DNA of 36,074 bases from contig CAZTNT010000001.1 in the NCBI GenBank assembly GCA_964614965.1, positions 1-36,074 on the forward strand, written 5' to 3'. Below the pieces are notes generated by a model. The model worked only from the letters and a program-made list of their open reading frames with translations, had not been told where the DNA came from and did not search any database. Numbering within the stretch: position 1 is the first letter of the stretch; every line of letters starts with the position of its first letter. Source of the stretch: an uncultured Lachnospiraceae bacterium. Lineage in GTDB: Bacteria > Bacillota > Clostridia > Christensenellales > UBA1242. Shown piece by piece: positions 97 to 30,449 of this stretch. Position numbers and translations under genes: made by a program.

Positions 97-125
97 TTGC
101 TTGAAAATAAATTTTATGATATAAT
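97..125 (+). promoter_or_regulatory. Sigma-A-type promoter positioned for a leaderless transcript of the 132-1358 gene
   Basis: TTGCTT (97-102), 17-nt spacer, TATAAT (120-125) with an extended -10 TG at 117-118. Only 6 nt (ctatat) lie between the -10 and the ATG at 132. No purine-rich SD. Confidence 0.45.
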
Positions 126-131
126 CTATAT

Positions 132-1358
132 ATGAAACCTATAATTAAAAAAGTAAAAAATTTGTTAAAGATTTCAATTGCTGGAGTTTTGCTTGCGACA
201 ACAGTTTTTTTATCAACATCTTGTTCAAATGTAGAGTATGATAGTTTTTATGATACGGATGAAATTGATTCGATTGCTGAAAAAATGGAATGTGATACTG
301 GATATCTTTGGAAAATAAATGATAACTATGCAAGAATGAAACATAATGGTGATGAGCCAATTTATGTTTGTTTTGATGAACAATTAACTGAAGATGAAAT
401 GTCCACAGCTAAAGAGGCTTTGGAATATGTTTTTGGACTTCTTAGTAAAATTAATGAAAAATATCAATACAAAATTGTTGACAAAAAGGAGTATGAATTA
501 AAAAATAATAAAACAAGAATTTATTTTGGGTTAGGACAACATGATATAATAGCTAACGGTATAGAATTTGCTTCACAAGGACATATTTATCAGGACTATG
601 ACTTCTTTAGTACTTTAACAGATGTTCCACTTTGGAATGACTATAGAATTAATATAGATAGAGAAGAGATAAAAAAAGATCCAAATCCCAATGCTTTATA
701 TTATACTAATGTTCATGAATTGATGCATGCTTGTGGAGATAAAGATGTGTATGACATGAGTGCTAAAAATCATGCTTCAACCTTCAGAGGAAACACATTG
801 ATTAATCCTAATTCTGGTCCTATAGTTTTAAAATTTACGCCAAACGATGTTAAGTGTAAGATTCTTTTATATGCTGAAAAAGACGCAGATAAAAAAGAAC
901 TTAAACAAATTTTAAATGATTACACTAAAGAATATTATGATGAATATGTTAAAAAATGTGAAGAAGTAGGTGGAATAAAAGGATTTTTAAATGAAGAAGA
1001 TTTTGGGTTGGAAACAGCAATTAGAGTAACCGATGAGAAAGGAAATAAGTATGGGTATAGATATGTTGTTGAAGTTAATGACGGAAAATATCAATTTTAT
1101 TTATATGAATACTATTCTAATAAACTTTTAGATGAGTGTAAAGGCGATGTTGTTTATCATAATGGAGTTGCAATTTTAACTGATTTGAATTTAAAACATG
1201 GTTTTAGACCTTTTGATGTTTCCGATACTTATTCAAACGGATTAATTCAAGATTTGATAATAGGAGACTATAACGGAAGTCCAGCGATGTACGATTTATT
1301 TACAAATGATGTAAAGCTGGGAAAAATGTATGAACTTGAAAAAAATATGGTGCAATAA
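132..1358 (+). CDS. Putative secreted lipoprotein with a single HExxH zinc-metalloprotease motif
   Basis: 408-aa ORF. The signal peptide ends in a lipobox-like L-S-T-S-C (Cys31). VHELMHACG (HELMH at nt 714-728) is an HExxH motif. I recognise no other family signature. Confidence 0.7.
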   Translation: MKPIIKKVKNLLKISIAGVLLATTVFLSTSCSNVEYDSFYDTDEIDSIAEKMECDTGYLWKINDNYARMKHNGDEPIYVCFDEQLTEDEMSTAKEALEYVFGLLSKINEKYQYKIVDKKEYELKNNKTRIYFGLGQHDIIANGIEFASQGHIYQDYDFFSTLTDVPLWNDYRINIDREEIKKDPNPNALYYTNVHELMHACGDKDVYDMSAKNHASTFRGNTLINPNSGPIVLKFTPNDVKCKILLYAEKDADKKELKQILNDYTKEYYDEYVKKCEEVGGIKGFLNEEDFGLETAIRVTDEKGNKYGYRYVVEVNDGKYQFYLYEYYSNKLLDECKGDVVYHNGVAILTDLNLKHGFRPFDVSDTYSNGLIQDLIIGDYNGSPAMYDLFTNDVKLGKMYELEKNMVQ

Positions 1359-1373
1359 TGCACCATATTTTTA
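1347..1373. terminator. Bidirectional Rho-independent terminator shared by convergent genes
   Basis: ATGGTGCA (1347-1354) pairs with TGCACCAT (1359-1366). The 4-nt loop ATAA contains the TAA stop of the plus-strand gene. T-rich run follows (atttttat). Confidence 0.5.
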
Positions 1374-2282
1374 TAAACTTTCAATCAAGTCTTCAATTTG
1401 CTTAAGTGTTGTAAACTCAAGAATTTTAAGTTTAGTGGCAGTTGCGTTAGTTAAGGATTTAACATACCACATCAAATGTTTTTTGAAATAAGCAACCAAA
1501 GTTTTTTCTGTACGATAGTAAGTTTTAAGTAATTCTAAATGCTTTTTTATTGCTTCTTTTCTTGAGTAAGGAGGAACAATATCTTTAAGTGTGGAAAATA
1601 TTTCAGGATTTCCCATTGCGTGTCTTCCAATCATAACTCCGGAGCATCCAATTGATTTTGCATATTCAACGTCTTCTTTGGTTAATATGTCGCCGCTCCA
1701 GAAAACTGGTATGTTGACATGATTGATTAATTTTTCGTAGGCAGATTTGTCCACTTCACCAGAATATCCTTGTTCACGTGTTCGAGCATGCAAGGTTAAA
1801 AATGCAACCCCACACTCTTCACACATTTTTGCAAACTCGATGTAATTGCTACTTTCTTCAATTCCAAGTCTAAATTTTATGCTGATAGGTTTCTTGCTGT
1901 TTTGGACCAAACTTGTTATAACTTTTCTTGTGTTTTCAATGTTTCTCATCATTGCAGAACCGTCATTGTTTTTAACAATTTTTGGAGCAGGACATCCACA
2001 ATTAAAATCTATAAAATCAAATTGATCAAACAAACTTGTGTGTAAAGCTTTTTCAATTGCGTTAATGTCGTGACCAAAAAGCTGACATACTTTAATTGCA
2101 TTTGATTCTTCTCTTAGCATTTTTTCAGTTCTGAAACTTTTGTTTTCAAGTGCTTTAACACTTATCATTTCGCTCACAACCATGTCTGCACCAAAATCAG
2201 CACAAATTTTTCTAAATGCAAAATCAGTAACTCCAGCCATTGGCGCTAACGCATAAATAAATTTATTAAATAATTTTTTCAT
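1371..2282 (-). CDS. dus: tRNA-dihydrouridine synthase (Dus family, FMN TIM barrel)
   Basis: 303 aa. N-terminus LAPMAGVTDFAFRKIC and the internal DFNCGCPAPKI motif (catalytic Cys region) are typical of DusB-like enzymes. Confidence 0.9.
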   Translation of the reverse strand: MKKLFNKFIYALAPMAGVTDFAFRKICADFGADMVVSEMISVKALENKSFRTEKMLREESNAIKVCQLFGHDINAIEKALHTSLFDQFDFIDFNCGCPAPKIVKNNDGSAMMRNIENTRKVITSLVQNSKKPISIKFRLGIEESSNYIEFAKMCEECGVAFLTLHARTREQGYSGEVDKSAYEKLINHVNIPVFWSGDILTKEDVEYAKSIGCSGVMIGRHAMGNPEIFSTLKDIVPPYSRKEAIKKHLELLKTYYRTEKTLVAYFKKHLMWYVKSLTNATATKLKILEFTTLKQIEDLIESL

Positions 2283-2288
2283 AAAATA

Positions 2289-2317
2289 ATTATAATAAAA
2301 ATATGAAAATATTTCAA
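2289..2317 (-). promoter_or_regulatory. Sigma-A-type promoter positioned for a leaderless dus transcript
   Basis: On the minus strand: TTGAAA (complement of 2312-2317), 17-nt spacer, TATAAT (complement of 2289-2294), 6 nt (tatttt), ATG (complement of 2280-2282). No SD. Confidence 0.45.
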
Positions 2318-2398
2318 TAAATTTATTAAAAATATTATTTTTTCATAAAAAAATATAAAAATTAAATAAAATTAAAATAAAAAACAAAAAATAATCAC

Positions 2399-3904: not shown

Positions 3905-3942
3905 AATTTTTAGTGTTGAACATAATCACAATGGAGGCATGT

Positions 3943-4215
3943 ATGAATAAAAATGAATTCGTAAACGAAATTAATGTAAAATCAGGGTTGAGCAAGAAGG
4001 ATTGCAAATTGTGTTTGGATGCAATGTTGGAAGTGATAAAAACAGCCTTGCAAAACGGTGAAAGCGTTACATTGTCTAACTTTGGGAAATTCAAAGTGAG
4101 TGATGTTAAAACTAAGTCGATGTATAATTTCCAAACAAAGAGAACTGAAATTGTGGAAGCGAGAAAATCTCCAACATTTAAGGCAAGTGATAATCTTAAG
4201 CAATGTGTGAAATAA
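3943..4215 (+). CDS. hup: HU/IHF-family DNA-binding protein, divergent beta-arm
   Basis: 90 aa from the ATG at 3943, with a GGAGG SD at 3933-3937. The track ORF begins at an upstream GTG (3913) that lacks an SD. MNKNEFVNEI...LSKKD...GFGKF-like core and a C-terminal P-x-FK motif fit the HU fold. Confidence 0.85.
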   Translation: MNKNEFVNEINVKSGLSKKDCKLCLDAMLEVIKTALQNGESVTLSNFGKFKVSDVKTKSMYNFQTKRTEIVEARKSPTFKASDNLKQCVK

Positions 4216-4263
4216 TTTAATTTTTCACTAAACTCACAAATTTAGTTTATTTTTAAATATGAT

Positions 4264-4294
4264 AAAAAATTGAGAAATATTTTCTCAATTTTTT
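4264..4294. terminator. Bidirectional Rho-independent terminator between hup-like gene and tadA
   Basis: AAAAAATTGAGAAA (4264-4277), TAT, TTTCTCAATTTTTT (4281-4294): a perfect inverted repeat flanked by A and T runs. It overlaps the last codons and TGA stop of tadA. Confidence 0.55.
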
Positions 4295-5650: not shown

Positions 5651-5672
5651 ATTTCTAATCACCCCTTATGTT

Positions 5673-5855: not shown

Positions 5856-6319
5856 TGATATGAAATATTGTTTAAAATTGTGAATGCGCGATATAATTGT
5901 TCTAAGAAAATCACACGCATTAATTGGTGAGGAAAGGTCATTGGAGAAAAAGAAATTTTTTCATTAGCAAGTGACTTGATTGTTTCATGAATGCCATTTG
6001 ATGCTCCAATAACAAAAGATATTTCGCTGTTGGTTAAGCAAATTTTATTAATTTTTGCGCTGAATTCTTCACTTGAAAACATTTTTGCGTTTATATCTAA
6101 ACAAAAAATGTGACCTTTTAAATATTTTTTAATTTCATCTGCATCTTTTCTTAATGCGATGAGAATGTCGGATGTTGTGTTTGATTGAGCAACATGTTCT
6201 TTTAATTCAACAATTTTAAGATCGGCGAATCTAGAAATTCTTTTTGAATATTCGCCTATTGCTTCTTTTAGATATTTTTCTTTTATGTCGCCAACACAAA
6301 TTAAATTAATTTTTATCAT
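5849..6319 (-). CDS. rlmH: 23S rRNA (pseudouridine1915-N3)-methyltransferase RlmH (SPOUT)
   Basis: MIKINLICVGDIKEKYLKEAIGEYSKRISRF and the C-terminal FPHQLMRVIFLEQLYRA are typical of RlmH. The ATG at 6319 overlaps the upstream stop as TAATG and follows a GGGGGA SD. Confidence 0.9.
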   Translation of the reverse strand: MIKINLICVGDIKEKYLKEAIGEYSKRISRFADLKIVELKEHVAQSNTTSDILIALRKDADEIKKYLKGHIFCLDINAKMFSSEEFSAKINKICLTNSEISFVIGASNGIHETIKSLANEKISFSPMTFPHQLMRVIFLEQLYRAFTILNNISYHK

Positions 6320-7353
6320 TAGATGATCCCCCAAATAAAACTTGAAAGTGTGATTAAAATTCCTAAAATCAAACTAGAAATTAAGAAAATATTGTCAGAA
6401 AATGAAGACCTTGGTTTTGATTGTTCTTTATCGGCTTGACGCTTTAACAATAAATTAATTTCATTGAATTTTATTTGAGCTTGATCAATCGGCATTTGCT
6501 CAACTTGAAGAGCTTTCACAATGGCTTTTATTTCTTTTTGTGCTCGCTCACGCATTAAAACTTTAACCAAGTAATTGAAAAGCAACAATAATAAAATCAC
6601 TGAAACTGCAGAAGAAACAATAAATATAAACATGTTACTCATGAATATGTTTGTGATAAAATTAACAAATTTTGCAACTGGCCAATTTAAATAGGTTCCA
6701 TAAACGAAATAATTGCTTAAGAAGTTGTTCATAAAATGAATTATGATGCTTGGAATAATACTATCAGCAACTAGCGAAACATAACCCATTAAAAAGCCTA
6801 AAATTGTTGCATAAAAGAATTGGCGGATGTTGAGGTGTGTTAAACCGAATAAAATAGATGAAATAATTAAGCAAAATTTTGTGTTTCTATGTTTTTTTTG
6901 TGAATGAAGCATAATGCCTCTGTGTAAAAATTCTTCACAAAAACCAGGTAATATACAAGACAACACAAACTCCTTTAGAAGTGTTTTGTAACTTAATGTT
7001 ATCGTTCCAGAACCTAAACTTTCATAACCAAAAAGTGAAATAATTCCGTAAAAGGCGTCGGCAACAAAACTATTGATAAAATATAAAACAACTCCGAGAA
7101 GAATAGAAATCAAAATCATCTTTCCTGAGATTTTTTTGAGTCCGCAATCAGTAAGGGTTTCTTTAAAATTTTTCTTCATTAGAATTGTATACATAAACAT
7201 CGGGATTGCAAACATAACAATAATTTGAATGAGGAAAGATGTTAAGATGTCATTTTGTAAAATTCCGGTGTATCCCAAAACAAAAACAATGGCAACAAGA
7301 GAGATTGCCATAAAATATATCAAATTAATTTTAAATACGTTTTTGTTTTTCAT
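6319..7353 (-). CDS. CPBP-family intramembrane glutamic endopeptidase (CAAX protease/Abi family) with a C-terminal extension
   Basis: The three CPBP motifs are present: CEEFLHRG, FGLTHL, HFMNNF. An extra charged helical segment of about 80 aa (RERAQKEIKAIVKAL...KRQADKEQSK) and a final TM helix follow. Confidence 0.85.
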   Translation of the reverse strand: MKNKNVFKINLIYFMAISLVAIVFVLGYTGILQNDILTSFLIQIIVMFAIPMFMYTILMKKNFKETLTDCGLKKISGKMILISILLGVVLYFINSFVADAFYGIISLFGYESLGSGTITLSYKTLLKEFVLSCILPGFCEEFLHRGIMLHSQKKHRNTKFCLIISSILFGLTHLNIRQFFYATILGFLMGYVSLVADSIIPSIIIHFMNNFLSNYFVYGTYLNWPVAKFVNFITNIFMSNMFIFIVSSAVSVILLLLLFNYLVKVLMRERAQKEIKAIVKALQVEQMPIDQAQIKFNEINLLLKRQADKEQSKPRSSFSDNIFLISSLILGILITLSSFIWGII

Positions 7354-7354
7354 A

Positions 7355-8239
7355 TTAAACCAAATTTACAATAATCCAAATAATTAACATTATCGCCAAA
7401 CAAGAAAAGAATATAACTTTGTTAGACTTTTCAATTTTTTGTTTTTCTTGATTGGATGTCTTAAATGTAAAATACAAAATGATTGATAAAAATGCAATCA
7501 ACAACAAAAATGCAAAAATGATGTAAGACCAATGATTAAACACTAAATTGATTTTGAAATAAGATAAGGTTAATGATAAAAAGTTGTTAGTAAGATGAAC
7601 AGCAATACAATAGTATATGTTGTTTTCATAAAACATTATTACAGCAAGAAGCATACCTATTAAAATTGGATAAACTGTTTGACTCAATGACATATGGAAA
7701 AGAGCGAACATTAAAGAACTGACGATGATTGCAAAATTTTTTCCATATTTTTTCAGTCCTTTAAAAATAACGCCTCTAAATAACAATTCTTCACAAACTG
7801 CTGGAGCAACCACGAGTGAAATCAATGAAATAAAATAGTTTTTTGTCGTTAAAGAATATGGTAAAGTGCTAATTTCCGCACCGCATTTAACCAAAAGAGA
7901 ATCAACGCAAATTATAATTGGATATAAACATAAAAAGGACACAACTGCTATCAATATATAAAATAACAATTTTTTAAATTTCAATTTTTGAATGATTTGA
8001 TTTTCTTTTTTTCGATTGAAGTAAAAGAAAACACATAACATAGCTGAATACAAACCTAAGGAAGATATCATATATCCCCAAGCTTCGTTTAAAAAAGATG
8101 TGAAATTTTCCATTTCAAAGCCACAAACGTTGTAAACTATCATTGTTACGCATGTAAAAACAACAACAGACAACTGGCACAACAAAAATCCTACTAAAAA
8201 CGATAATGCGCTATCTTTAATTGTTAATTTTGTATTCAT
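7355..8239 (-). CDS. CPBP-family intramembrane glutamic endopeptidase (CAAX protease/Abi family)
   Basis: Motifs CEELLFRG, FALFHM, HLTNNF. Polytopic. Confidence 0.85.
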   Translation of the reverse strand: MNTKLTIKDSALSFLVGFLLCQLSVVVFTCVTMIVYNVCGFEMENFTSFLNEAWGYMISSLGLYSAMLCVFFYFNRKKENQIIQKLKFKKLLFYILIAVVSFLCLYPIIICVDSLLVKCGAEISTLPYSLTTKNYFISLISLVVAPAVCEELLFRGVIFKGLKKYGKNFAIIVSSLMFALFHMSLSQTVYPILIGMLLAVIMFYENNIYYCIAVHLTNNFLSLTLSYFKINLVFNHWSYIIFAFLLLIAFLSIILYFTFKTSNQEKQKIEKSNKVIFFSCLAIMLIIWIIVNLV

Positions 8240-8245
8240 AATCTT

Positions 8246-8274
8246 ATTATACTAAAAATAAAAAGAATTAGCAA
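8246..8274 (-). promoter_or_regulatory. Sigma-A-type promoter positioned for a leaderless CPBP-CPBP-rlmH transcript
   Basis: On the minus strand: TTGCTA (complement of 8269-8274), 17-nt spacer, TATAAT (complement of 8246-8251), 6 nt (aagatt), ATG (complement of 8237-8239). No SD. Confidence 0.45.
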
Positions 8275-8346
8275 TAGTATATTTAAAATTAAATCTAGTT
8301 TTTTGATTTGTAAAACAAATTTGTAAAGAGTTTCATATATATTAAC

Positions 8347-8991: not shown

Positions 8992-9000
8992 ATATTGTTA

Positions 9001-9027
9001 AAAAAGCATAGATTTATATGCTTTTTT
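9001..9027. terminator. Bidirectional Rho-independent terminator
   Basis: AAAAAGCATA (9001-9010), loop gattta, TATGCTTTTT (9017-9026). It lies between convergent genes and overlaps the stop of the minus-strand gene. Confidence 0.6.
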
Positions 9028-20300: not shown

Positions 20301-22093
20301 ATGGTGTTGACAATTCTCGTTATGTACCTGATTATGGAACATATGGCACAAAAGAAAATCCATTCATAATCCATGATTTAACAACTTGGAATCGTTATTT
20401 TGATTATGACTTAAACAAGGGTATCATGACAGGATATTATCGAATTGTTAAAGATATTGACTTTGCTTCAGTTGGTAAAAACCCATCAACAAGTGAATTG
20501 ATTTTCCAAGGAAATATTCAAGGGAATAATATGCAACTCATGAATATGATGCTCTATTCAAATGAAGGTTTAGATTCATTGGGATTATTCAAAAAATTGC
20601 AAGGTGTGAGCGATAGTTCAATCCAAAATGCTGTTAGAAATTTACAAATTTCAGCAACATCAGTTTGGGCAAGTTCAACTAAATCGGTTGGAATACTTGC
20701 TGGCATCATTGAAAACTTTAACATCTATAATTTAACTATTGATTCTGAAGGCGTTATCATGGTTGGTAAAAATGCTGTTGGTGGTGTTGCGGGTGTTGTT
20801 AGAGGTGAATTTGATATGGATCAAATTTCATCAAACATCGGAGCAAACAGCACACGAGCTTCAACTTTGAATAGTTATTCAATTTATATGTCAGAAAACA
20901 ACAGCAAAAATGCTTCAGAAAATTTAAGCAATGTTTATTATGCTGGGGCTGTTGCGGGAATTTTAGACGGTTATTCAACAAGAAAGATTTATAACATTAA
21001 TGATGAAAGAAATTTGCAATCTGATTACTACAAAGTTAGAAACGTTAATGTGAGTGGGGCAGTAACAGTCGCTGGAGATACAATTGGTGGAGCTTTTGGT
21101 TTTGTTGGAGAAAGTGTTCTGGTGGATTCAGTTAATGTTAACATCACTGGTTCATTGTTCGGTTCACAATATTCAGCAGGAATTGTTGGAGAAAATAGAG
21201 GTGTTTTGAAAAATGCGAAAGTTGTTTTGCAAAACGGAATTTTCACCAATGCAAAAAATGTTCATGCTGGTGCAGTTGGATTGAATATAGGTGGACTTGT
21301 AAGCGATGTCAGCGCTCAAGCATTTATTGAAAAGAACAATTATGGATATGTTGTTGCTGGAATTGTTGGAAGGAATATTAACGGAGTTGTAACAAAAGTC
21401 TATTTCGATGGAGAGTTGTATGGTTATATCACTGGTGGAATTATTGGAACAGACTATGATTATAAAATTTACGAAAGTTTGACATCTGGTAGAAATTCCC
21501 TTAATGTTGAATGCAGAGATAATTTTAAAAACATTGTTCCTGAAAACACAGTTATGTATTCCGATGATTATAAACATTTACAAGAAGTTTCTATAGGTGG
21601 AGAAACATTGAATTGGATGATTAACAATTCAAATAGATTCTATGGCTATCAAAAACTTTCTTCAGGAGCAGAAGCAAATTTAACCAACTACACAGTTGAA
21701 AGCAAAGTCTTAGGACTTGTTGTTGGATTGAGTTATGATAATTCAGTTGCTCCAATTGGAGGAATTTATAAAGATATAAAAGAAACAAAAATTATCTTTA
21801 ATGGTCCAATAGATTCAACCGATGATAAAATGGATATAACAAGCGTAACTGTAAATGATAATAATGATGACATGATTACTACATATAACTTTAATGTATA
21901 TGGAAATATCGAACTAGAACTTAAAGAAGGAACAACATTCAATTTTGTTTCTCAAACGGGCGATATAAGTTATGTAATGTATTTATTGGGTTCTACAGTT
22001 GCATCATTTGATTCTTGGTCTACTTATGATGGCGAATATTTGATTTTTGGAACTTATACTCAAGAATCAATTCAAACTGAGCCTGAAAATTAA
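11399..22093 (+). CDS. Giant (3,564 aa) surface lipoprotein with three GLUG-like parallel beta-helix modules and an Ig-like (Big_2-like) domain
   Basis: Uninterrupted 10,695-nt ORF. The signal peptide has lipobox-like LFSC (Cys17) / FSAC (Cys23). There are three modules at about nt 14694-16100, 19008-20250 and 20338-21470. Each opens with P-x-x-I-x-x-x-E/W-D/N-F, then Y-x-L-x-x-D/N-I/L-x-L/F, then F-x-G-x-x-x-G-N-G/N-x-x-I/L (FDGNGHTITI in module 2). A train of G-G-[ILV]-[VA]-G / AGFV motifs follows. A Big_2-like segment lies at about 16390-16760 (GNVVVSVRSTDPSVIDINFDGRIIINGVGECELIFSS). Confidence 0.9.
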   Translation: MKKFYSFALIILSLFSCVVFSACGNKYKNLKMNIFSNEGEMLTVAEFVIDSSKGSTKTFCVEFLGIDKDDIGEIVVSSLPQELITVTNYSYSGNRCYVDITPNMSSGSDAKLVVSHLNSGKKKSINLSIDKKAENLNLVSNSYAIALPQTETVNHVVDFSQIVNLSPSGSTDKIYFKLADGSTLENHIKPINLTDVEGYEDVLTGFEVSVGKDFEVDIYPVTYMKGYIRGETDPYINKKIKIYFKNALSNDNVKIKDDISSLNLIANDESLNLFKVTLLNQNDELLMQTDCVNFYNLNHETSEQLKVSTFIDSNKDVIIKANTHTDDYVDVKIILSPKMPGNLPTVEKIIKVKGESKADTIYVEKFQQEVEDFNNVNIFDYYDDGGNSLGALFTFKPSTNNGSEVHEELKSMQIVIDPAILYIENCTPVPSGVSVDSTLFSLTFNHISLIPNDPFKEADLLKFTYKDGKMVSEEIGVNSRVYIKYIKHASGDGRYEPSSFGIDVVTLNKSENEFWKNLEQTKISLNFNRMEGVAKATLQAGEYYYQNNFMYPKVGAVSAPEYIYLDRLKGLNNTTANRTFVSIINESVESRDGGKIATTDFTVTVEPLQEVENPLKIAFGSINKDDLGNIGNNEKGVDKIVYKYDSKLETDIVSLVFRNNTSLGDYKITFYQENIEKVSLICRVYENLNGINESYIEIETNAKAFKNVNYIEQYQSQYIVASGQSLNLSINLPQAVLNSNIVVGYDLTQYEIKDSLIETIDEDPVEPGIDEEPINVKDYFDVKHDHDMLSTAVLDFKKGTYIKDKPQYVCLTIVVGTKIYSDITQESSEIDYSNIITLTFFIYEEIENKDASINHTSMTRYMTDCVGVYYEDLTKADLKITMADELWNYVTLIDSKQIKWSQNWSEAPIGKVENNDEHSCAITFNYSGVDSKYEVEISAFIQQFDNLFEYKCVFLVEKPILTQKLLIKSDVYESDGELYIDLKKGDTYQVEATNYSKLGDVTFDDIIIQVAAEDGQALKAYDYFEIDRTNSKIKVKDVNSAYNFTLIVFTKDVLSERIESTMSGYENPSSFIKKFDYDNNNYSNAFVKIAINLFDGSVSRPIPIHTYEDFLNINKATELHYVLKNNINLSNGFTPIENFTGSLKSFGNETFTIDGITLDGTNVNLFKDFKGEIDNIKFGVQYAYDMKSSANEVYLGLFNKNAGTLENVKVQMSGSAQLKGSATYIFGGLVGDNHNIITYSSGYGVAGKISITGEQSTTVYFGGLVGRNINLIKGYETSNNQGGTNSITIGTNGGVSHAISMIEATETTLYGESSIGGVVGLNTYDGSSVGTIKNMFVKANIDANASNVGGVIGTNKQQGTVSVEISSNIPVNFDSVLTSQNTKAIYNVKSASTINANNNVGGIVGNDENGVYVECDYQILNTTKNSICANSNVGGIAGFSKYGKFAYCSVMNYNLDYEELNVEDKTDLVISINSNADISGADYVGGIVGKAESSTDPMSSTEKRYDRVIVLYSSVNAYLKATKTDNNIGGILTQDGTKTADDGPNLLLYGVYFIGKLDGNVVYYNKTTTNNGVPTTHYFALDNGYALFDQSYSINIEENVIRCGSMSGNQLMTNWFENLSDDDYSQLALYWGWLKNVNGGHIFITTTQEANSDSLPIFDLAPESITATVVKPKATGLEKVLMLDYYDFSLNSISNEDLEKLNESYNRNQYIIDHIAGNGNRTAGLLNITAKPEKIGNVVVSVRSTDPSVIDINFDGRIIINGVGECELIFSSILNTEAEARIKVVVDYPIGDQFNITKYPNDEGRIVSGTEKIAQGTTKQYYVLTSGSKTINQKSNEKTYSYITKTNVWLDIAIECNDVIIEDYVQISGKTATSVDSKLSIKLDDKTPFTISVLKMLEDDQFTFTIKPFVVVDDIEVYLETVDNQEASTTFNLSTLKGVTGVSFSYDDAIVYPNDTVYLTMQLQTDDPLCPDTTTSSANGDVQIRIDVLKNVISNLLNLDPDTQNLYNLSLMLNNNPNVKCAINVDRSSYNKNTQIQTIVLRIEFEDMNLEEPENMKITLSTLEDDAYAQVNFKIIPQRINKIEVKNYYYRLDDNQEKVLELYDVLKPNDFGLMIIDLVPNNAYYDYLEISDITGNEEIVFIQIDGDGKAYNLQDVSSDGKGIKLYNYNSSRLYVRTQISNTYSSKLHTIEIRAYASDRTQLGDSYRKQIDVRMLPQIDIKYLKPDGSVGASLNSTDNETSKDGLYLATGVDAIFTITTQNADEIIVSKDGSSAGDYEIEKITETQYRLKATNKVDIGNKITLKVKAISEINANDTDETECSITFTIVDFVIHGVSVNSSINNLTTKEIYGYYNRDVKLNFYFSKTDVSYYDSSSTGEKFWDTEYNYGDAYDETDDNLVKIYSILQALNGYDSAGNLQETNDYLILNKNKKETSGQYDEDEILNQGQVSGQKVQLYQNVLTVQEGYDKETVEKDGKEVEVDSPKYLAVAFKLNYDKEAPTPSWELATLNSSIDRGVVDYSYIVDVNFKLNFMNVTQWDNPEVVNNVEDFYNMESGKQYILNTDLTLENHTPIDADLVYFDGNGHTITIHSFSTFEGTQMNAGLFAQVYPNMIVKNVNVKYVSMNVNGNYTFGLVKGKSNGSYEVEYADLSQGSAALTNANFGGVCAVNKGIITNCYVSGLIAVTASALGTSEAMNLGGLVAENSSTGYITNSHSELNMFALANIGGFVNSNNGKIASCGVEENATIYGYQPNLENTITAQFAGFVVQNAGEISMSYVNLNASRIEIGYAKKNMVNNEIENDYLRLEINGGKMSVKDSSAGFVYSNSGNIYDAYVQMTEIGVNNNYFAGFVYSNSGNINRAYTYLNEGKIDISNTFMFAPSKTSGIENSVEFMSSTSSSYNNGIDGLETKPIAIRYSRSFFETLGFAFGDNESAVWQTSAGNAPKLVSAKRLEFKALTINYVPDNDVSDGVDNSRYVPDYGTYGTKENPFIIHDLTTWNRYFDYDLNKGIMTGYYRIVKDIDFASVGKNPSTSELIFQGNIQGNNMQLMNMMLYSNEGLDSLGLFKKLQGVSDSSIQNAVRNLQISATSVWASSTKSVGILAGIIENFNIYNLTIDSEGVIMVGKNAVGGVAGVVRGEFDMDQISSNIGANSTRASTLNSYSIYMSENNSKNASENLSNVYYAGAVAGILDGYSTRKIYNINDERNLQSDYYKVRNVNVSGAVTVAGDTIGGAFGFVGESVLVDSVNVNITGSLFGSQYSAGIVGENRGVLKNAKVVLQNGIFTNAKNVHAGAVGLNIGGLVSDVSAQAFIEKNNYGYVVAGIVGRNINGVVTKVYFDGELYGYITGGIIGTDYDYKIYESLTSGRNSLNVECRDNFKNIVPENTVMYSDDYKHLQEVSIGGETLNWMINNSNRFYGYQKLSSGAEANLTNYTVESKVLGLVVGLSYDNSVAPIGGIYKDIKETKIIFNGPIDSTDDKMDITSVTVNDNNDDMITTYNFNVYGNIELELKEGTTFNFVSQTGDISYVMYLLGSTVASFDSWSTYDGEYLIFGTYTQESIQTEPEN

Positions 22094-22100
22094 TAAACAC

Positions 22101-22128
22101 TTGACAAATTTCATATTTAAATTAAAAT
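22101..22128 (+). promoter_or_regulatory. Sigma-A-type promoter positioned for a leaderless queH transcript
   Basis: TTGACA (22101-22106), 16-nt spacer, TAAAAT (22123-22128), 6 nt (attagt), ATG at 22135. No SD. Confidence 0.45.
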
Positions 22129-22134
22129 ATTAGT

Positions 22135-22716
22135 ATGAAAATTGATTACAACAAAATAATGCAAGAAGAAATAAGTAGTTTTGGTGAAAAGCCAAAACTA
22201 CTTTTGCATTGTTGTTGTGCACCTTGTTCAAGTGCTGTGATTGAGAGAATTAAAGAGTTTTTTGATATTACCTTTTACTATTACAATCCAAACATATTCC
22301 CGCAAGAAGAATATGTTTTGCGTCAAAGTGAATTTAAAAAATTGGGTGTTAAAGTGGTGGCGGAACAATATAACCATGAAGAATTCTTAAGGGTTATAAA
22401 AGGTAAAGAAAACGAAAAAGAAGGTGGAATTCGTTGTCAAATTTGCATCGCTGAAAGATTGGATAAAACTTTTCAGTATGCTATTGAAAATGGTTATGAT
22501 GTTGTCACAACAACTCTTTCGATTAGTCCACATAAAGATTGTGAATTTATAAATCAACTTGGTGAAAGACTGCAAGATAAGTATGGAGTTAAATATCTTC
22601 ATGCAGATTTCAAGAAGCAAAATGGCTATTTAAGAAGCATTCAAATCTGCAAAGAACTTGGAATTTATCGTCAAGATTATTGTGGCTGTGAATTTTCAAT
22701 TGAAAAGAAAAATTAG
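22135..22716 (+). CDS. queH: Epoxyqueuosine reductase QueH (DUF208 family)
   Basis: 193 aa. LLLHCCCAPCSS, YYYNPNIFP..EY, ISPHKD and the C-terminal YRQDYCGCEFS are the signature Cys/His motifs of QueH. Confidence 0.85.
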   Translation: MKIDYNKIMQEEISSFGEKPKLLLHCCCAPCSSAVIERIKEFFDITFYYYNPNIFPQEEYVLRQSEFKKLGVKVVAEQYNHEEFLRVIKGKENEKEGGIRCQICIAERLDKTFQYAIENGYDVVTTTLSISPHKDCEFINQLGERLQDKYGVKYLHADFKKQNGYLRSIQICKELGIYRQDYCGCEFSIEKKN

Positions 22717-22735
22717 TTTTAGCATATATAAACAT

Positions 22736-23752: not shown

Positions 23753-24471
23753 TTTTTGTCTCCTCGCATTGCAAATATGAACAACAGAACTCTAACTAAT
23801 GATAAAACCGATGTGATTAATGCGGCAACATATGTCCATGCTGCTGCATTTAAAACCTTCTTTGCAGATTTTGCTTCTTCCTCGGTTAATTCGTGTGTGC
23901 TAACTAACATTTTGTAAGCACGATTACTTGCATTTAGTTCAACTGGAAGTGTGACTAAACAGAAAATCGTGTTTAAAGCATAAATTCCAAGACCAATATA
24001 AATTAAAGTTGTTGCCCAAGTTGCCATGTAAGCCACTTCAAAAATTAATCCCAAAACAATCAATGGCCACATAAAATAACTTGAAATATTTAAAATTGGT
24101 ACCAAAGCTTTTCTGATTTTAATTGGAGTATAGCCTTGTTTATGTTGAAAAACGTGACCAACTTCATGCGCTGCAACACCGATGGCTGAAATGGAATTTT
24201 CATTTGCAACATTTTGCGAAAGAGAAACAGTGTTTGTTTTTGGATTGAAATTATCTGTTAGTTCACCGCGGATTTCTTTAATCTGTGTGTCGTAACAACC
24301 ACCTCCATTTAACATTGTTCTTGCAACATCTTTTGCTGTTCTTCCTCTTGAAGAAGAAACGGAAGAGAATTCATCAAAAGTGGTTTTAACTTTTATTTGA
24401 GCGAAAACACCTAACATAATTCCAGGAATCATAACGAAACCTAAAATGTAATAAACAAGATATGCGTACAT
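23749..24471 (-). CDS. YugP-like membrane zinc metallopeptidase (Zn_peptidase_2 family)
   Basis: 240 aa. An N-terminal TM is followed by ...TVSLSQNV...SISAIGVAAHEVGHVFQH (HExxH), then C-terminal TM helices, the characteristic YugP layout. AGGAGA SD. Confidence 0.8.
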   Translation of the reverse strand: MYAYLVYYILGFVMIPGIMLGVFAQIKVKTTFDEFSSVSSSRGRTAKDVARTMLNGGGCYDTQIKEIRGELTDNFNPKTNTVSLSQNVANENSISAIGVAAHEVGHVFQHKQGYTPIKIRKALVPILNISSYFMWPLIVLGLIFEVAYMATWATTLIYIGLGIYALNTIFCLVTLPVELNASNRAYKMLVSTHELTEEEAKSAKKVLNAAAWTYVAALITSVLSLVRVLLFIFAMRGDKN

Positions 24472-24703
24472 AATCTCTCCTTTAAATTATGATATAATTA
24501 TTTTATATTTTTGTCAATAAAATATGTTTCAAAGTGATTTTTTATTATTTTTAATTAATTTATAAATAATTTTTTTTAAAAAATTAAATAAAATTCGCGA
24601 ATTATTAATTTTGTACATATATTTGTAATTCTACATTATAATAAAAAAATTTTAAAAAAATTAAAAAAATATTAAAAAATTATTAGTAATTAATATTTCT
24701 TTG

Positions 24704-24712
24704 TGTTATAAT
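24704..24712 (+). promoter_or_regulatory. Extended -10 promoter element upstream of the AT-hook protein gene
   Basis: TGtTATAAT at 24704-24712. No good -35, which is acceptable for extended -10 promoters. Confidence 0.35.
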
Positions 24713-24805
24713 AACAATGTAGATTAATGTCAAATGAAACAAATTATTGGTGAAAATTTGTGGCTTTGGCAACAAAATCATTTTGTGATATTAAGGGGTA
24801 TTTTT

Positions 24806-27229: not shown

Positions 27230-27250
27230 GGCATCATGCCTTATTTTTTT
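27228..27250 (+). terminator. Rho-independent terminator
   Basis: AAGGCAT (27228-27234), C, ATGCCTT (27236-27242), followed by ATTTTTTT. The innermost pairs must open to form a loop. Confidence 0.6.
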
Positions 27251-27291
27251 GTTTCTAACAACAAAACACATTTTCGCTAGACAATAGTTTT

Positions 27292-27477
27292 TTACTTATT
27301 TAAAGCTTTTAACAATTCATTGACATCAACTTCATGAACAGCGCATGCTTCTTCCAAACTTTCCATTTGTGAACATGGGCAATATAAACAATGAAAACCA
27401 AAACTTGTTAAAATTTCTTCAGCTTTTGGATGGTTTTCCAAAACGAAACTAATGATATCTGTTTTTTTGAATTTCAT
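27292..27477 (-). CDS. DUF1858 / hybrid-cluster-protein-associated redox disulfide domain protein
   Basis: 61 aa. ...ISFVLENHPKAEEILTSFGFHCLYCPCSQMESLEEACAVHEVDVNELL matches the family consensus (..P....F...GMHCLGCP....ESIEEA...HG.D...LL). AAGGAGA SD. Confidence 0.7.
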   Translation of the reverse strand: MKFKKTDIISFVLENHPKAEEILTSFGFHCLYCPCSQMESLEEACAVHEVDVNELLKALNK

Positions 27478-27590
27478 ATTTCATCTCCTTAATCAAGGTT
27501 AGTATAACACGAATTAAAATAAATTACAACTTAATTCATAAATTAAATCAATTAACCCAAACTAACATTAACGAATTTTAAAAATATATC

Positions 27591-27619
27591 TTGACTATCA
27601 AGTTATAAAGTTATATAAT
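27591..27619 (+). promoter_or_regulatory. Consensus sigma-A promoter positioned for a (near-)leaderless LtaS-family transcript
   Basis: TTGACT (27591-27596), 17-nt spacer, TATAAT (27614-27619), 8 nt (aaaaatat), ATG at 27628. No SD. Confidence 0.55.
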
Positions 27620-27627
27620 AAAAATAT

Positions 27628-29799
27628 ATGTTTAGAACAATCTCAAACAAACTTTTGATGGTGTTATATTTTGTTGTTGGTGCACTGATTTTGGAAGCAC
27701 TAACTTTTTCCATCTTAGATTTGGGATTTATGCCGGAATATTTTTGGTATAATTTCTTTTTAATCTTAGTTGTTGCAATCACTGTGTTTATAATTCCAAA
27801 TTTCACAGCTCAATATGTGATTTACACAATAATTTTGATTTTGCAAGCTGTTTTAGCATACATAAATTATTCACTTAGTCGTGTTTATGGAGATTTAATT
27901 TCAATCGAAATGGTAAGATTAATCGGTGAAGCAGGTGCTGCCATGACGTCAAGTTTTGTGTATATGGCTGTTTTGTTGGAACTTGTTCTTGTTTGTATTT
28001 TTATTGCGCTAATGGGTGGGCTGTTGTTAAAATATTGTAAAAAAGATAAGAATAACATCAAACAACATTTTTCTATTTTTAGCATTATTATAATAATTAG
28101 TGTTCAATTGTTTGCTGTTGGATTTTCAATTCAAACACGTGAGCGAGTTAATGCAATGTCAAGTTTAACAGATGTGGAATATGCATTAACAGATGAATTT
28201 TTGATGAACACTTCAATTCTTAAAACAAGCAGTTACACAAAGTTTGGAACATATGGCTATTTCACCAACATGATTGTTAATTCAATTAGAAATGATGGTC
28301 AGACTATTGAAAAAGCAACGATAGATTATTTTAATTCTGGTGAAATTTATGGAACAGAAAATAATAAAAGTGACGTTTTTGGAGTGGATAGTGGCAATAA
28401 TGTCATAGTTGTTATGATGGAATCTCTTGAATGGTTTGGTTTTGGAGACGGAATGTATGACTCGCAATTTAACAATCTTTCTCCAGAATTTATTCCAAAT
28501 CTTTATTCAATCATGTTTGGAGATGATTATGAAACCGACACAAGCAATGATAATTTGAACAATGATTCTATTCTTGCAAAAAATTTCTTTGCAAAATCAA
28601 AAACAAACATGAGTGAAGGTCAAGGAATTATAGGTAACTATCCTATTGCTCAGCCATTGACAGATGTTGTTAGAAACGACACTGCAACAAAACATGCATT
28701 AGGTTATTCAATGCCACATGTGTTAAAAAATTTAGGATATAACACAAGTTATGTTCATTCTCATGACATTTCGTTCTATAGTAGAGGAAAAACACATTCT
28801 TATCTCGGCTTTGACACTGTTATTGGCAAAGATGGTGTTAAAGATGAGAATGGAAATTATATTTACACTGGCAATAACTTAGATTTTGACAATTGGGCAG
28901 CAGAAGGAGAATTTGTTGAAAATGCAATTGATCACATTGTTCCCACTGATCGAACAAAACCATTCTATACGTTCTATTTAAATGTTTCATCACACGGTGC
29001 ATACACAGCCAAAGATAATACCCACGATGGCGATGCAAACAAGTATTATTACTATGTTAAATATGGCGAAGATGATTGTGAAATAAACGGATCTGGAAAT
29101 TGGCAATTGTCAAAACCAGAAAGCGAAGCAACAAAAACAGAATGGTATCAAAATGTTCTTGAAAATCACTCTAAAATTGCTGAAGATTTGGTTTATTATC
29201 AATGTGGTGTTAAGGGTCTTGATGATGCATTGGGAGTTATCATCAACAAACTGAAAGAATATGATATATATGAAGAAACCACAATGTTGTTATATTCAGA
29301 TCATTACGCATACTATGATAGTTTATCGCATATATACAAAGGTTTGAGCACAACAAATAATAACAATAAAGAATTGAACACAATTCCAATGATAATTTCA
29401 AGTCCAGGAGTTAAACAATATAATTCAACATCAGAAGCTAAGTACTTAATAAACACGCGTTTCACATCTGCTTATGATGTTGTTCCAACCCTCTTTGATT
29501 TGCTGGGAGTGAAATTTAATGAAAATCTTTATGTTGGTCAATCTATTTTCAGCCCATCTGACGTGGTTTACACTGAAAATGATGTAACAAAAGATATGAT
29601 TGTTTACTATTCAAACACAGGTGGTTTGTTTGGGGATGGAATTTACACCTTTGATTTAAAAACCATAGTTACAGAGCACAATTACAGCGAAGAGACGGTT
29701 GAACTTTTCAAAGGACAATGCACAAATTTACTCACCAAAATCAATTTTATAACATTCCTAAATCGTTATAATTTGTATCATAAATTAACAAATGTTTAA
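27628..29799 (+). CDS. LTA synthase-family (sulfatase/alkaline-phosphatase superfamily) membrane transferase
   Basis: 723 aa. About five N-terminal TM helices precede a large extracytoplasmic domain whose start (NVIVVMMESLEWFGF) resembles the conserved LtaS/sulfatase metal-site strand. Confidence 0.8.
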   Translation: MFRTISNKLLMVLYFVVGALILEALTFSILDLGFMPEYFWYNFFLILVVAITVFIIPNFTAQYVIYTIILILQAVLAYINYSLSRVYGDLISIEMVRLIGEAGAAMTSSFVYMAVLLELVLVCIFIALMGGLLLKYCKKDKNNIKQHFSIFSIIIIISVQLFAVGFSIQTRERVNAMSSLTDVEYALTDEFLMNTSILKTSSYTKFGTYGYFTNMIVNSIRNDGQTIEKATIDYFNSGEIYGTENNKSDVFGVDSGNNVIVVMMESLEWFGFGDGMYDSQFNNLSPEFIPNLYSIMFGDDYETDTSNDNLNNDSILAKNFFAKSKTNMSEGQGIIGNYPIAQPLTDVVRNDTATKHALGYSMPHVLKNLGYNTSYVHSHDISFYSRGKTHSYLGFDTVIGKDGVKDENGNYIYTGNNLDFDNWAAEGEFVENAIDHIVPTDRTKPFYTFYLNVSSHGAYTAKDNTHDGDANKYYYYVKYGEDDCEINGSGNWQLSKPESEATKTEWYQNVLENHSKIAEDLVYYQCGVKGLDDALGVIINKLKEYDIYEETTMLLYSDHYAYYDSLSHIYKGLSTTNNNNKELNTIPMIISSPGVKQYNSTSEAKYLINTRFTSAYDVVPTLFDLLGVKFNENLYVGQSIFSPSDVVYTENDVTKDMIVYYSNTGGLFGDGIYTFDLKTIVTEHNYSEETVELFKGQCTNLLTKINFITFLNRYNLYHKLTNV

Positions 29800-29836
29800 A
29801 ATTTTCATTAATTTCACAAAAAAATTTTAAAAACAG

Positions 29837-29865
29837 TTGACAACGAGTTTTCTTTGAGTTATAAT
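29837..29865 (+). promoter_or_regulatory. Perfect-consensus sigma-A promoter of tRNA-Asn
   Basis: TTGACA (29837-29842), 17-nt spacer, TATAAT (29860-29865). The mature tRNA starts at 29881. Confidence 0.6.
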
Positions 29866-29880
29866 AAACTCGTTTTCAAT

Positions 29881-29955
29881 GCCTCGATAGCTCAATGGTG
29901 GAGCAACCGGCTGTTAACCGGTAGGCTACAGGTTCGAGCCCTGTTCGGGGCGCCA
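29881..29955 (+). tRNA. tRNA-Asn (anticodon GTT), CCA encoded
   Basis: Acceptor stem GCCTCGA / TCGGGGC (one G-U pair). D-arm TAGCTCAATGGTGGAGCA. Anticodon stem-loop ACCGG-CTGTTAA-CCGGT. T-arm ACAGGTTCGAGCCCTGT. Discriminator G and CCA at 29953-29955. Confidence 0.9.
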
Positions 29956-29963
29956 GAAAATCA

Positions 29964-29987
29964 CTCAGGAGAAATCCTGAGTTTTTT
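29964..29987 (+). terminator. Rho-independent terminator after tRNA-Asn
   Basis: CTCAGGA (29965-29971), GAAA-type loop, TCCTGAG (29975-29981), then TTTTTT (29982-29987). Confidence 0.7.
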
Positions 29988-30000
29988 AATGATTAATTAA

Positions 30001-30062
30001 GAGTGAATAATGAAGAATTGTGGAAAGTTTGAAGTGATTTTCTAATTCTTCATTTTTCATTC
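30001..30062. repeat. Long imperfect inverted repeat (19-bp arms, 24-nt loop) between the tRNA and the four-helix-bundle gene
   Basis: GAGTGAATAATGAAGAATT (30001-30019) pairs with AATTCTTCATTTTTCATTC (30044-30062), with one mismatch and one G-U pair. Confidence 0.6.
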
Positions 30063-30072
30063 TTCATTAAAT

Positions 30073-30101
30073 TTGACAAAATCAAACAAATGTGTTAAAA
30101 T
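30073..30101 (+). promoter_or_regulatory. Consensus sigma-A promoter positioned for a near-leaderless four-helix-bundle gene transcript
   Basis: TTGACA (30073-30078), 17-nt spacer, TGtTAAAAT (30093-30101), 9 nt, ATG at 30111. No SD. Confidence 0.5.
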
Positions 30102-30110
30102 AAAAATACT

Positions 30111-30449
30111 ATGAAAGAAAATTTATTAATTTCAAAATCTAAAGATTTTGCATTAAAAATTATTGCACTATGCAAAAATATTAAAAATCAAGGAAGTTTA
30201 ACAAATCAACTACTTCGTTCAGCAACTAGCATAGGTGCAAACATTCACGAAGCAAATTATGCTCAAAGCAAAGCAGATTTTGTAAGTAAATTGCAAATTG
30301 CTTTAAAAGAGTGTTATGAAAGTGAATATTGGATTGATTTGCTAATTTCAGCAAATATAATAGGAGAAGAAAATAAAAATTTATTAGATGATTGTATTGA
30401 AATAAAAAAGATTTTAATCAAATCTTGCAAAACTGCAAAAGGTGAATAA
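30111..30449 (+). CDS. Four-helix-bundle protein (23S rRNA intervening-sequence protein / Avd-like family)
   Basis: 112 aa. QLLRSATSIGANIHEANYAQSKADFVSKLQIALKECYESEYWIDLL matches the family signature (R.A.SI.ANI.EG....S..DF..KL.IA.KE..ET.YWL.LL). Confidence 0.8.
   Translation: MKENLLISKSKDFALKIIALCKNIKNQGSLTNQLLRSATSIGANIHEANYAQSKADFVSKLQIALKECYESEYWIDLLISANIIGEENKNLLDDCIEIKKILIKSCKTAKGE

Follow-up and report, generated by a model that had tools for sequence, protein, structure and literature searches.

Start-adjacent promoters and predicted leaderless genes in Candidatus Onthoplasma, a small-genome member of family UBA1242 (Clostridia)

Start-adjacent promoters and SD-led genes in the window

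The window, a stretch of 36,074 nucleotides, belongs to a genome of Candidatus Onthoplasma (family UBA1242, Christensenellales, Clostridia) of ~1.1 Mb and 31% GC. Six putative promoters in the window lie directly against the start codon of the gene that follows. They are given below with the gap between the -10 hexamer and the ATG.

97..134, + strand: lipoprotein gene unit; -35 TTGCTT 97-102, TG 117-118, TATAAT 120-125, gap 6 nt, ATG 132
2280..2317, - strand: dus unit; -35 TTGAAA 2317-2312, spacer 17 nt, TATAAT 2294-2289, gap 6 nt, ATG 2282
8237..8274, - strand: CPBP (Rce1-like) operon unit; -35 TTGCTA 8274-8269, spacer 17 nt, TATAAT 8251-8246, gap 6 nt, ATG 8239
22101..22137, + strand: queH unit; -35 TTGACA 22101-22106, spacer 16 nt, TAAAAT 22123-22128, gap 6 nt, ATG 22135
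27591..27630, + strand: LtaS-family (sulfatase-domain) gene unit; -35 TTGACT 27591-27596, spacer 17 nt, TATAAT 27614-27619, gap 8 nt, ATG 27628
30073..30113, + strand: four-helix-bundle (23S rRNA IVS protein family) gene unit; -35 TTGACA 30073-30078, spacer 17 nt, TG 30093-30094, TAAAAT 30096-30101, gap 9 nt, ATG 30111

Reading of the sequence confirms all six layouts, with a gap of 6 nt in four units, 8 nt in one and 9 nt in one, and no motif resembling a Shine-Dalgarno (SD) sequence occurs at any of them. A good -35, which the sequence-only reading had attributed to every unit, is missing from the lipoprotein gene, where TTGCTT (3/6) is weak and an extended -10 (TG 117-118) is present instead. 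The dus promoter matches 11 of 12 consensus positions in the promoter scan. The LtaS-family and four-helix-bundle units are better called near-leaderless, with a predicted leader of 0-3 nt, probably 2-3 nt in the latter. The strict cases (gap 6) number four, where 1.6 are expected for a window of this size. A simple -35/-10 scan of the window rises hardly above shuffled sequence (127 vs. 114; 87 vs. 75), so the signal is one of position relative to starts and not of motif count.

The lipoprotein ATG at 132 is the sole start ahead of the signal peptide and lipobox (MKPIIKKVKNLLKISIAGVLLATTVFLSTSC). The Dus Pfam profile aligns from residue 12 of the dus product, and the IVS protein encoded by the four-helix-bundle gene aligns from residue 5, at profile position 4. 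In PolA and GT8, Pfam profile position 1 falls on residues 3 and 4, respectively. These alignments thus put the predicted N-termini at the ATGs that adjoin promoters. Genetic code table 4 (TGA = Trp), considered for the low GC, is rejected because the long ORFs, including a 3564-aa gene, are open under table 11 and contain no in-frame TGA.

SD-led initiation operates in the same genome, and two units of the window illustrate it:

35468..35484, + strand: example of the SD mode; SD AGGAG 35468-35472, 9 nt before ATG 35482
24469..24517, - strand: short SD-bearing leader; -35 TTGACA (from 24517), TATCAT ending 24489, 17 nt with AAAGGAGAG, ATG 24471

The coexistence of two initiation modes, proposed from the window alone, is borne out across the genome: ~60% of starts are preceded by SD 4-mers, with a maximum at 5-8 nt, and the 16S gene closes with the canonical 3' sequence ...GGATCACCTCCTTT, its anti-SD intact. 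Genome-wide, the -10 boxes of SD genes cluster 14-22 nt before the start. The claim that the other genes of the window carry strong SDs applies to some of them; those at 2399, 8347, 9703 (complement) and 24734 lack both an SD and an adjoining -10. As to whether loss of ribosomal protein S1 might account for SD-independent starts, an S1-like protein of 336 aa with several S1 domains is encoded here and in relatives; only 2 of 14 control genomes reach the NCBIfam cut-off, so that this profile carries no weight in either direction.

Position of -10 boxes and accompanying promoter elements

The sequence-only reading had called for a scan for -10 boxes 6-9 nt before starts that lack an SD. Run on the 1.13-Mb genome, it returns a peak that is very sharp and lies at exactly 6 nt. 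A -10-like hexamer stands at this gap in 56 genes, 52 of which start with ATG (13.7 expected, Poisson p 2e-15); ATG makes up 75% of all called starts (Fisher p 0.001). Expressed as a rate, 69 per 1000 gene-start ATGs have such a hexamer 6 nt upstream, vs. 11 per 1000 internal in-frame ATGs and 12 per 1000 intergenic non-start ATGs, and neither control shows a peak at this distance. At gap 6 there are 30 exact TATAAT boxes, at neighbouring gaps ~4. No SD-like 4-mer is found at -18 to -4 in 53 of the 56 genes. Gaps of 5, 7, 8 and 9 nt are weakly enriched in the set without SD (11-17 genes each vs. ~7). A TATAAT at gap 2, 5, 8 or 11 has its TAA in frame, and this skews start calls made by the longest-ORF rule; the enrichment at gaps 5 and 8 is therefore partly an artefact, since the next ATG becomes the "first" one.

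The gap-6 class is concentrated in first genes of transcription units. It comprises 9% of genes with a divergent upstream neighbor, 5% of those that follow a same-strand gene at a distance above 40 nt and 1% of operon-internal genes, and the median intergenic distance upstream of its members is 79 nt. Promoter elements that were not used for selection accompany it. In the ATG-anchored profile, TTG occupies -35 to -33 (71, 76 and 47%) and TG occupies -15/-14 (78 and 55%). TGn precedes the box in 25 of 49 gap-6 genes vs. 9% of intergenic -10-like hexamers (p 1e-13). Position -1 is a pyrimidine in 46 of 49 (94%) vs. 58% of SD genes (p 7e-8), which is the bias to be expected with +1 at the A of the ATG. 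With a gap of 6 nt, this A is the seventh base after the -10; the usual distance is exemplified by Mesoplasma florum, in which transcription starts 6-7 bases after the -10 (PMC7745072).

The predicted leaderless share is ~5% of genes, or ~50-60 of 450-666 possible unit-first genes (roughly 8-13%), these absolute fractions being rough because genes were called by a home-made procedure (longest ORF plus a codon-usage score). "Widespread," the term originally applied to the layout, is thus an overstatement, as the share lies far below that of Actinobacteria. In Actinobacteria or Deinococcus, leaderless initiation amounts to 20-40%.

Conservation in the genus and distribution in Clostridia

The -10/ATG geometry of the dus, queH, CPBP and LtaS-family genes is kept across ~30 species of the genus. 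For dus, a -10 box, exactly 6 nt and an ATG are found in 18/18 genus genomes and 47/57 public loci; the sequence of the spacer varies freely, and the box shifts along with the ATG when the N-terminus moves. CPBP orthologues in the genus have gap 6 in 20/28 and gap 7 in 3/28. Among 30 queH orthologues, the gap is 6 in 22, 7 in 5 and 8 in 2, and the -35 TTGAC is conserved among those listed. In the 30 LtaS-family orthologues, a strong promoter always abuts the ATG, at a gap of 6-8 nt in 25 of them (6 in 10, 7 in 12, 8 in 3). Nearly all of the orthologue starts listed are ATG. Conservation of the four-helix-bundle and lipoprotein units is little informative because few genus genomes have the genes (3/30 and 5/30, respectively). 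Two homologues of the former, read by eye, show a -35, 17 nt, TGn, a weak -10 and ~6 nt to the ATG, and two of the few homologues of the latter (L186, L187) also show TGnTATTAT, 6 nt and ATG. Between genera, strict 6-nt spacing is kept in only 5 of 22 orthologue pairs and ~9 have an SD instead; the predicted leaderless state is labile at this level.

Genomes were compared by the count of the pattern TGnTATAAT-N6-ATG relative to an N7 control, in a sample of 150 Christensenellales and 150 Clostridia. The N6 count exceeds the N7 count 3.4-fold in family UBA1242, vs. no N6 spike in 146 other Clostridia (922 vs. 1093 for N7). Per Mb, the excess is 12.6 in UBA1242, 3.3-4.5 in the nine Christensenellales families that come next and zero elsewhere in class Clostridia, so that the signal is far denser in this family than in other Clostridia. 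It drops as genome size rises (Spearman -0.39). A complete genome from another genus of the family (G084) has gap 6 in 68 of 852 genes (exact TATAAT 36 vs. ~4). A literature search that combined leaderless mRNA with Christensenellales gave no hits.

On balance these data lean toward an expansion within the lineage: in UBA1242 (Onthoplasma and relatives), leaderless initiation may well have become several times more common than in other Clostridia, together with a reduction of the genome to ~1 Mb, as an independent parallel to Mycoplasma. The leaderless gene set would then be fixed within a genus and turned over between genera, genes passing between the leaderless and the SD-led state, with the genomic share steady at 5-8%.

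Interpretation and comparison with known systems

From the geometry, its genome-wide excess, the promoter features and the conservation, all observed directly, we infer the position of transcription start and the mode of ribosome loading. Sigma-70-type promoters very probably place the start of transcription at the A of the ATG or up to 3 nt ahead of it, giving rise to leaderless or near-leaderless mRNAs; the gap-6 peak, the independent promoter features and the orthologues all point to this reading, which was first suggested by the six units. RNA polymerase would begin on this A or 1-3 nt ahead of it, and the resulting mRNAs would have neither a 5' untranslated region nor an SD. As in bacteria in which this mode has been studied, ribosomes would then start at the 5'-terminal AUG itself, without SD pairing and through 70S or IF2-dependent loading. 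This mode may serve ~50-60 genes, many of them low-abundance housekeeping genes, with SD-led initiation as the majority mode. It would be a known mode of gene expression in a lineage where it was not described before, and it brings no new mechanism to light.

The promoters could also be real but secondary, the translated mRNAs being mainly leadered and coming from upstream promoters or readthrough. There is a precedent in C. phytofermentans: 4% of starts there are potentially leaderless, but for most of these a second start further upstream and an ordinary ribosome-binding site were reported (PMC5171806). In addition, queH begins 42 nt past the stop codon of the 3564-aa gene, and no terminator is predicted between the two. 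However, 53 of the 56 gap-6 genes have no SD, so a leadered copy would be without the usual ribosome-binding site; the short upstream intergenic distances (median 79 nt) also speak against it, and the exact 6-nt register, the preference for ATG and the -1 pyrimidine are left unexplained if the adjoining start is unimportant. This account is unlikely.

Mis-assigned start codons would likewise turn the boxes into ordinary promoters of leadered mRNAs, with the true starts downstream behind their own SD. Longest-ORF calls do over-extend many genes, and 157 of those with neither signal have a downstream start with an SD. Yet these ATGs are where Pfam profiles and the lipoprotein signal peptide start (six units, PolA, GT8 and others), the same ATG is kept in orthologues, and a fortuitous upstream ATG would not give exactly 6 nt in 5 times more genes than expected, which makes general mis-assignment very improbable. 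Equally slim is the chance that the boxes are not promoters at all, either TATAAT-like strings arising by chance in 31%-GC DNA or an A/U-rich translational enhancer. The promoter scan that barely exceeds shuffled sequence would fit such an origin, but the excess is position-specific and restricted to gene starts, -35 and TGn elements accompany the boxes at the proper distances, and the N6 surplus of the family is not seen in other Clostridia of similar composition. Readthrough or upstream promoters could add leadered copies to the transcripts from the adjoining promoters, for example at queH.

The predicted leaderless initiation through start-adjacent promoters resembles what is described for several other bacteria. 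In Lactococcus, Streptococcus and other Lactobacillales, leaderless genes have been predicted from a Pribnow box by the start codon (Zheng et al., 2011, PMC3160421). As here, these are low-GC Firmicutes with TAtAAT, often with an upstream TG, at a few percent of genes and with SD-led initiation dominant. Unlike the Lactobacillales, which are Bacilli, the carrier here is an uncultured gut Clostridium of ~1 Mb. The leaderless share in Firmicutes averages 4.2% (range 2.4-16.6%), and the leaderless genes of that survey come from Lactobacillales and Mycoplasma only (PMC3160421). The view that this mode is not typical of low-GC Bacillota therefore holds in part: it is rare in the Clostridia studied so far, but similar frequencies are described for Lactococcus/Streptococcus and Mycoplasma (PMC3160421). 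Among cultured Clostridia, which share the class and a sigma-70-type promoter with a frequent extended -10, leaderless starts are, in contrast to UBA1242, rare: 2-3% of transcripts in the C. acetobutylicum group (PMC9045289) and 15 genes in C. difficile (PMC7438776).

The Mollicutes M. pneumoniae and Mesoplasma florum share a small, AT-rich, Firmicutes-derived genome and leaderless genes in normal housekeeping expression. In M. pneumoniae, 16% have a 5' UTR of 8 nt or less (PMC10568206); this species has an SD in 8% of genes and no ribosomal protein S1, whereas the present genome has an SD on ~60% of genes, an intact anti-SD, the 336-aa S1-like protein and a lower leaderless share. GeneMarkS-2 "group C" (Actinobacteria, Deinococcus-Thermus), to which only 3.4% of Firmicutes are assigned, has 25-50% of operons leaderless (PMC6028130). 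A Pribnow box at 6-8 nt from the operon's first gene is common to both, but the large operon share is not reached here, at roughly 8-13% by our own count.

SD-led starts are the usual assumption of gene finders and expression models applied to gut metagenome bins. If leaderless starts are allowed, ~1 gene in 20 of UBA1242 would be better called and its promoter located for free; among those concerned are polA and genes for a release factor, for replication and repair and for tRNA modification. The family would add a second, independent small-genome Firmicute lineage, besides the Mollicutes, with leaderless genes as a regular minority mode. Because SD usage and the anti-SD are intact, it offers a useful comparison for whether genome compaction itself favors loss of the 5' leader.

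Promoter-to-start layout and its genome-wide frequency

The sequence-only reading describes six units of the window in which a -10 box lies almost against the ATG, and all six layouts are present exactly where it placed them. The gap, i.e., the number of nt between the -10 box and the start codon, is 6 in four units, 8 in one and 9 in another.

The six promoter-ATG units, from the sequence
120-125, forward: TATAAT of the lipoprotein gene, gap 6 nt, ATG 132
2294-2289, complement: TATAAT of dus, gap 6 nt, ATG 2282
8251-8246, complement: TATAAT of the first CPBP (Rce1-like) gene, gap 6 nt, ATG 8239
22123-22128, forward: TAAAAT of queH, gap 6 nt, ATG 22135
27614-27619, forward: TATAAT of the LtaS-family gene, gap 8 nt, ATG 27628
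30096-30101, forward: TAAAAT of the four-helix-bundle gene, gap 9 nt, ATG 30111

The good -35 ascribed to all six takes the forms TTGACA, TTGACT, TTGAAA and TTGCTA with 16-17 nt spacing, but not in the lipoprotein unit, where TTGCTT matches at 3/6 positions and an extended -10 TG occupies 117-118. Pfam profiles bear out the gene identities and begin at the N-termini of the called ATGs. The second CPBP gene (in 6319-7357, complement) has its ATG at 7353, 1 nt past the stop of the first (7355-7357), and lacks a Shine-Dalgarno (SD) sequence, which suggests translational coupling within a leaderless-headed operon.

In the whole 1.13-Mb genome containing the window (G000), ~1,090 genes were called from longest ORF and codon-usage score, and hexamers with at least 5/6 matches to TATAAT, A at position 2 and T at position 6 were counted as -10-like. 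A peak at 6-9 nt before SD-less starts had been proposed as the check; the hexamers form one sharp spike, in which 56 genes have a gap of exactly 6 nt (vs. ~15 at other gaps) and exact TATAAT occurs 30 times (vs. ~4 elsewhere). Per 1000 ATGs, the gap-6 rate is 69 at gene starts (Poisson p 2e-15 for the excess), 11 at internal in-frame ATGs and 12 at intergenic non-start ATGs, and the two control profiles stay flat over all distances, with no peak. SD-less genes hold the entire spike (53/56), and ATG is the start codon in 52 of its 56 genes (p 0.001). Because the TAA within TATAAT is in frame with a downstream ATG at gaps 2, 5, 8 and 11 nt, longest-ORF calls are mildly biased to ATGs at those distances; this bias leaves the 6-nt spike unaffected. 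The excess is real genome-wide, but "widespread" has to be toned down to ~5% of genes.

Strict cases (a -10-like hexamer at gap 6) also share promoter features outside the selection criteria. When 49 of them are aligned on the ATG, TTG at -35 to -33 appears in 71, 76 and 47%, and TG at -15/-14 in 78 and 55%. TGn is found in 25/49, vs. 9% of all intergenic -10-like hexamers (p 1e-13), and a -35 with at least 4/6 matches in 54% of the gap-6 class vs. 26% of controls (p 7e-5). Transcription starts usually follow a pyrimidine-purine rule; the pyrimidine at -1 in 46/49 strict cases, vs. 58% of SD genes (p 7e-8), fits this rule with transcription starting on the A of the ATG. The class accounts for 9% of genes whose upstream neighbour is divergent and for 1% of operon-internal genes; the median spacer upstream of its members is 79 nt, vs. 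140 nt for SD-led first genes.

The gap-6 genes are ordinary housekeeping genes, many of them for replication and repair. Pfam profiles of the twenty best-scoring cases outside the window, which again start at the called ATG, include DNA polymerase I, MgsA/RarA, a DnaD/DnaB-like replication protein, RecX, DNA polymerase III delta' and AddB, as well as a class-1 release factor, SpoU methylase, LicD, a family-8 glycosyltransferase and an M16 peptidase.

Initiation modes

At gap 6 the A of the ATG is the seventh base past the -10 box, where transcription usually starts (e.g., 6-7 bases after the box in Mesoplasma florum, PMC7745072). RNA polymerase would most likely start on this A, yielding an mRNA that begins with AUG; gaps of 8 and 9 would leave leaders of 0-3 nt, too short to hold an SD. 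In studied bacteria, ribosomes bind leaderless mRNAs directly at the AUG of the 5' end, which is required, whereas an SD is not (PMC10568206). For the gap-6 genes, where transcription starts and how ribosomes load are both inferred; the indirect support is good, and the layout very probably reflects leaderless transcripts.

The genome retains an intact SD pathway, with GGATCACCTCCTTT as the 3' end of its 16S rRNA and SD 4-mers peaking 5-8 nt upstream of ~60% of starts. Together with the gap-6 class, this upholds the proposal of two coexisting initiation modes. In SD-bearing genes, -10 boxes cluster 14-22 nt upstream of the start codon (e.g., 24469-24517, complement), so that many leaders would be just ~8-15 nt, barely room for an SD; 5' leaders are compact generally in this genome. 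A third gene set has a leader and no SD. Strong SDs had been attributed to the other genes of the window, which is true of some, but several have neither element.

SD-led genes, from the sequence
35482, forward: start preceded by AGGAG
24471, complement: start preceded by AAAGGAGAG

Among the window starts examined, 2399, 8347, 9703 (complement) and 24734 have neither an SD nor an adjacent -10 box. The last belongs to an 831-aa AT-hook protein gene that lacks an SD and is preceded, at 21 nt, by an extended -10 TGtTATAAT (box 24707-24712); it exemplifies the third class, in which a short leader carries no SD. Four nt past this box comes a minimal ATG-TAG start-stop (24717-24722).

Conservation and turnover

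For dus, the -10 box, exactly 6 nt and ATG occur in 18/18 genus genomes first sampled and, by a conservative automatic count, in 47/57 public-genome loci. The six gap bases vary freely among orthologues, and where N-terminal length differs (-75 to +6 nt relative to the protein alignment) the box shifts together with the ATG. In a relative with 61% identity (L075), TATAAT is followed by a leader with GGAG. Gap 6 occurs in 22/30 queH orthologues (gap 7 in 5, gap 8 in 2), those listed conserving -35 TTGAC, and in 20/28 of the CPBP gene (gap 7 in 3). The consensus promoter of the LtaS-family gene always adjoins the ATG, at gap 6 in 10, 7 in 12 and 8 in 3, so the 8 nt of the window represents one end of the tolerated range. 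The four-helix-bundle and lipoprotein genes have homologues in too few relatives to be very informative, although most of these keep the box-ATG adjacency.

The complete genome G084 (984 kb, 10 contigs), from another genus of family UBA1242, repeats the spike, with gap 6 in 68/852 genes and exact TATAAT 36 times vs. ~4. Orthologues shared with G000 have a median protein identity of 46%; those of strict cases are again strict in 5/22, compared with 21/395 among the remaining genes (odds ratio 5.2, p 0.008). A small number of further orthologues are at gap 5 or were mis-scored, and ~9/22 carry an SD instead (loci L216-L269). Since the layout is kept within the genus and few pairs are strict between the two genomes, the leaderless state, as read from promoter layout, appears stable within the genus and to turn over between genera, its overall share staying similar. 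As a composition-controlled proxy, TGNTATAAT-N6-ATG was counted against the same pattern with N7; re-tabulated order-level counts agree with the original totals.

Occurrences of the N6 and N7 patterns
Family UBA1242, 6 genomes: N6 102, N7 30
Rest of Christensenellales, 145 genomes: N6 1009, N7 735
Clostridia outside family UBA1242, 146 genomes: N6 922, N7 1093

Elsewhere in Christensenellales, N6/N7 ratios are ~1.5 to 4 in about nine families, whereas many show none. The N6 excess per Mb is 12.6 in UBA1242 and 3.3-4.5 in the next families. It declines with genome size (Spearman -0.39), a lead rather than a test, as related genomes are not independent.

Lineage, known systems and further elements

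The G000 assembly comprises 154 contigs (1.13 Mb, 31% GC, completeness 90%, contamination 4%). Its Dus protein has its nearest public relatives in bins that carry the label Candidatus Onthoplasma, a genus placed by NCBI in Christensenellales, Clostridia, and by GTDB in family UBA1242, whose members live in the gut and have genomes no larger than ~1 Mb (PMC12306168); the source is thus a low-GC Bacillota, not a Mollicute. The standard bacterial code keeps the long ORFs of the window open, and in-frame TGA is not required. Two are very large, 3564 aa (11399-22093) and 1508 aa (30569-35095); the TTG start called for the latter is probably too far upstream.

The standard way to recognise bacterial leaderless genes computationally is by a start-adjacent Pribnow box (PMC3160421; GeneMarkS-2 "group C", PMC6028130). 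Among Firmicutes, 56/209 genomes have it, on average at 4.2% of genes, carriers being concentrated in Lactococcus/Streptococcus, Oenococcus/Leuconostoc and Mycoplasma, whose leaderless genes share the TG-extended TATAAT with G000 (PMC3160421); group C covers only 3.4% of Firmicutes (PMC6028130). Clostridia with mapped starts have 2-3% leaderless transcripts in a C. acetobutylicum group study (PMC9045289), 4% potentially leaderless starts in C. phytofermentans, most with a ribosome-binding site (PMC5171806), and 15 genes in C. difficile (PMC7438776). The view that leaderless initiation is atypical of low-GC Bacillota suits such Clostridia, where it is rare, but the ~5% of G000 is typical of Firmicutes having the trait, and far below Actinobacteria or Deinococcus. 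A literature search on leaderless mRNA and Christensenellales found no paper linking the two. Novelty is limited to the carrier, a clostridial, genome-reduced lineage; the features that deserve further attention are the enrichment seen in UBA1242 and the switching between the leaderless and SD-led states.

Two perfect promoters of the window precede other elements.

Promoter-associated elements
29837-29865: perfect consensus promoter (TTGACA, 17 nt, TATAAT) upstream of a tRNA gene
29881-29952: tRNA gene (Rfam 69 bits)
29963-29982: terminator hairpin 3' of the tRNA gene
35103-35131: second perfect promoter, upstream of the SD-led gene at 35482
35094-35268: weak T-box leader match (38.5 bits, below the gathering score of 93; E 3e-7)
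35260-35289: terminator-like hairpin upstream of the SD-led gene at 35482

Between the LtaS-family and four-helix-bundle genes, the strongest promoter is accounted for by the tRNA gene that it drives, and 35094-35289 is probably a divergent T-box riboswitch.
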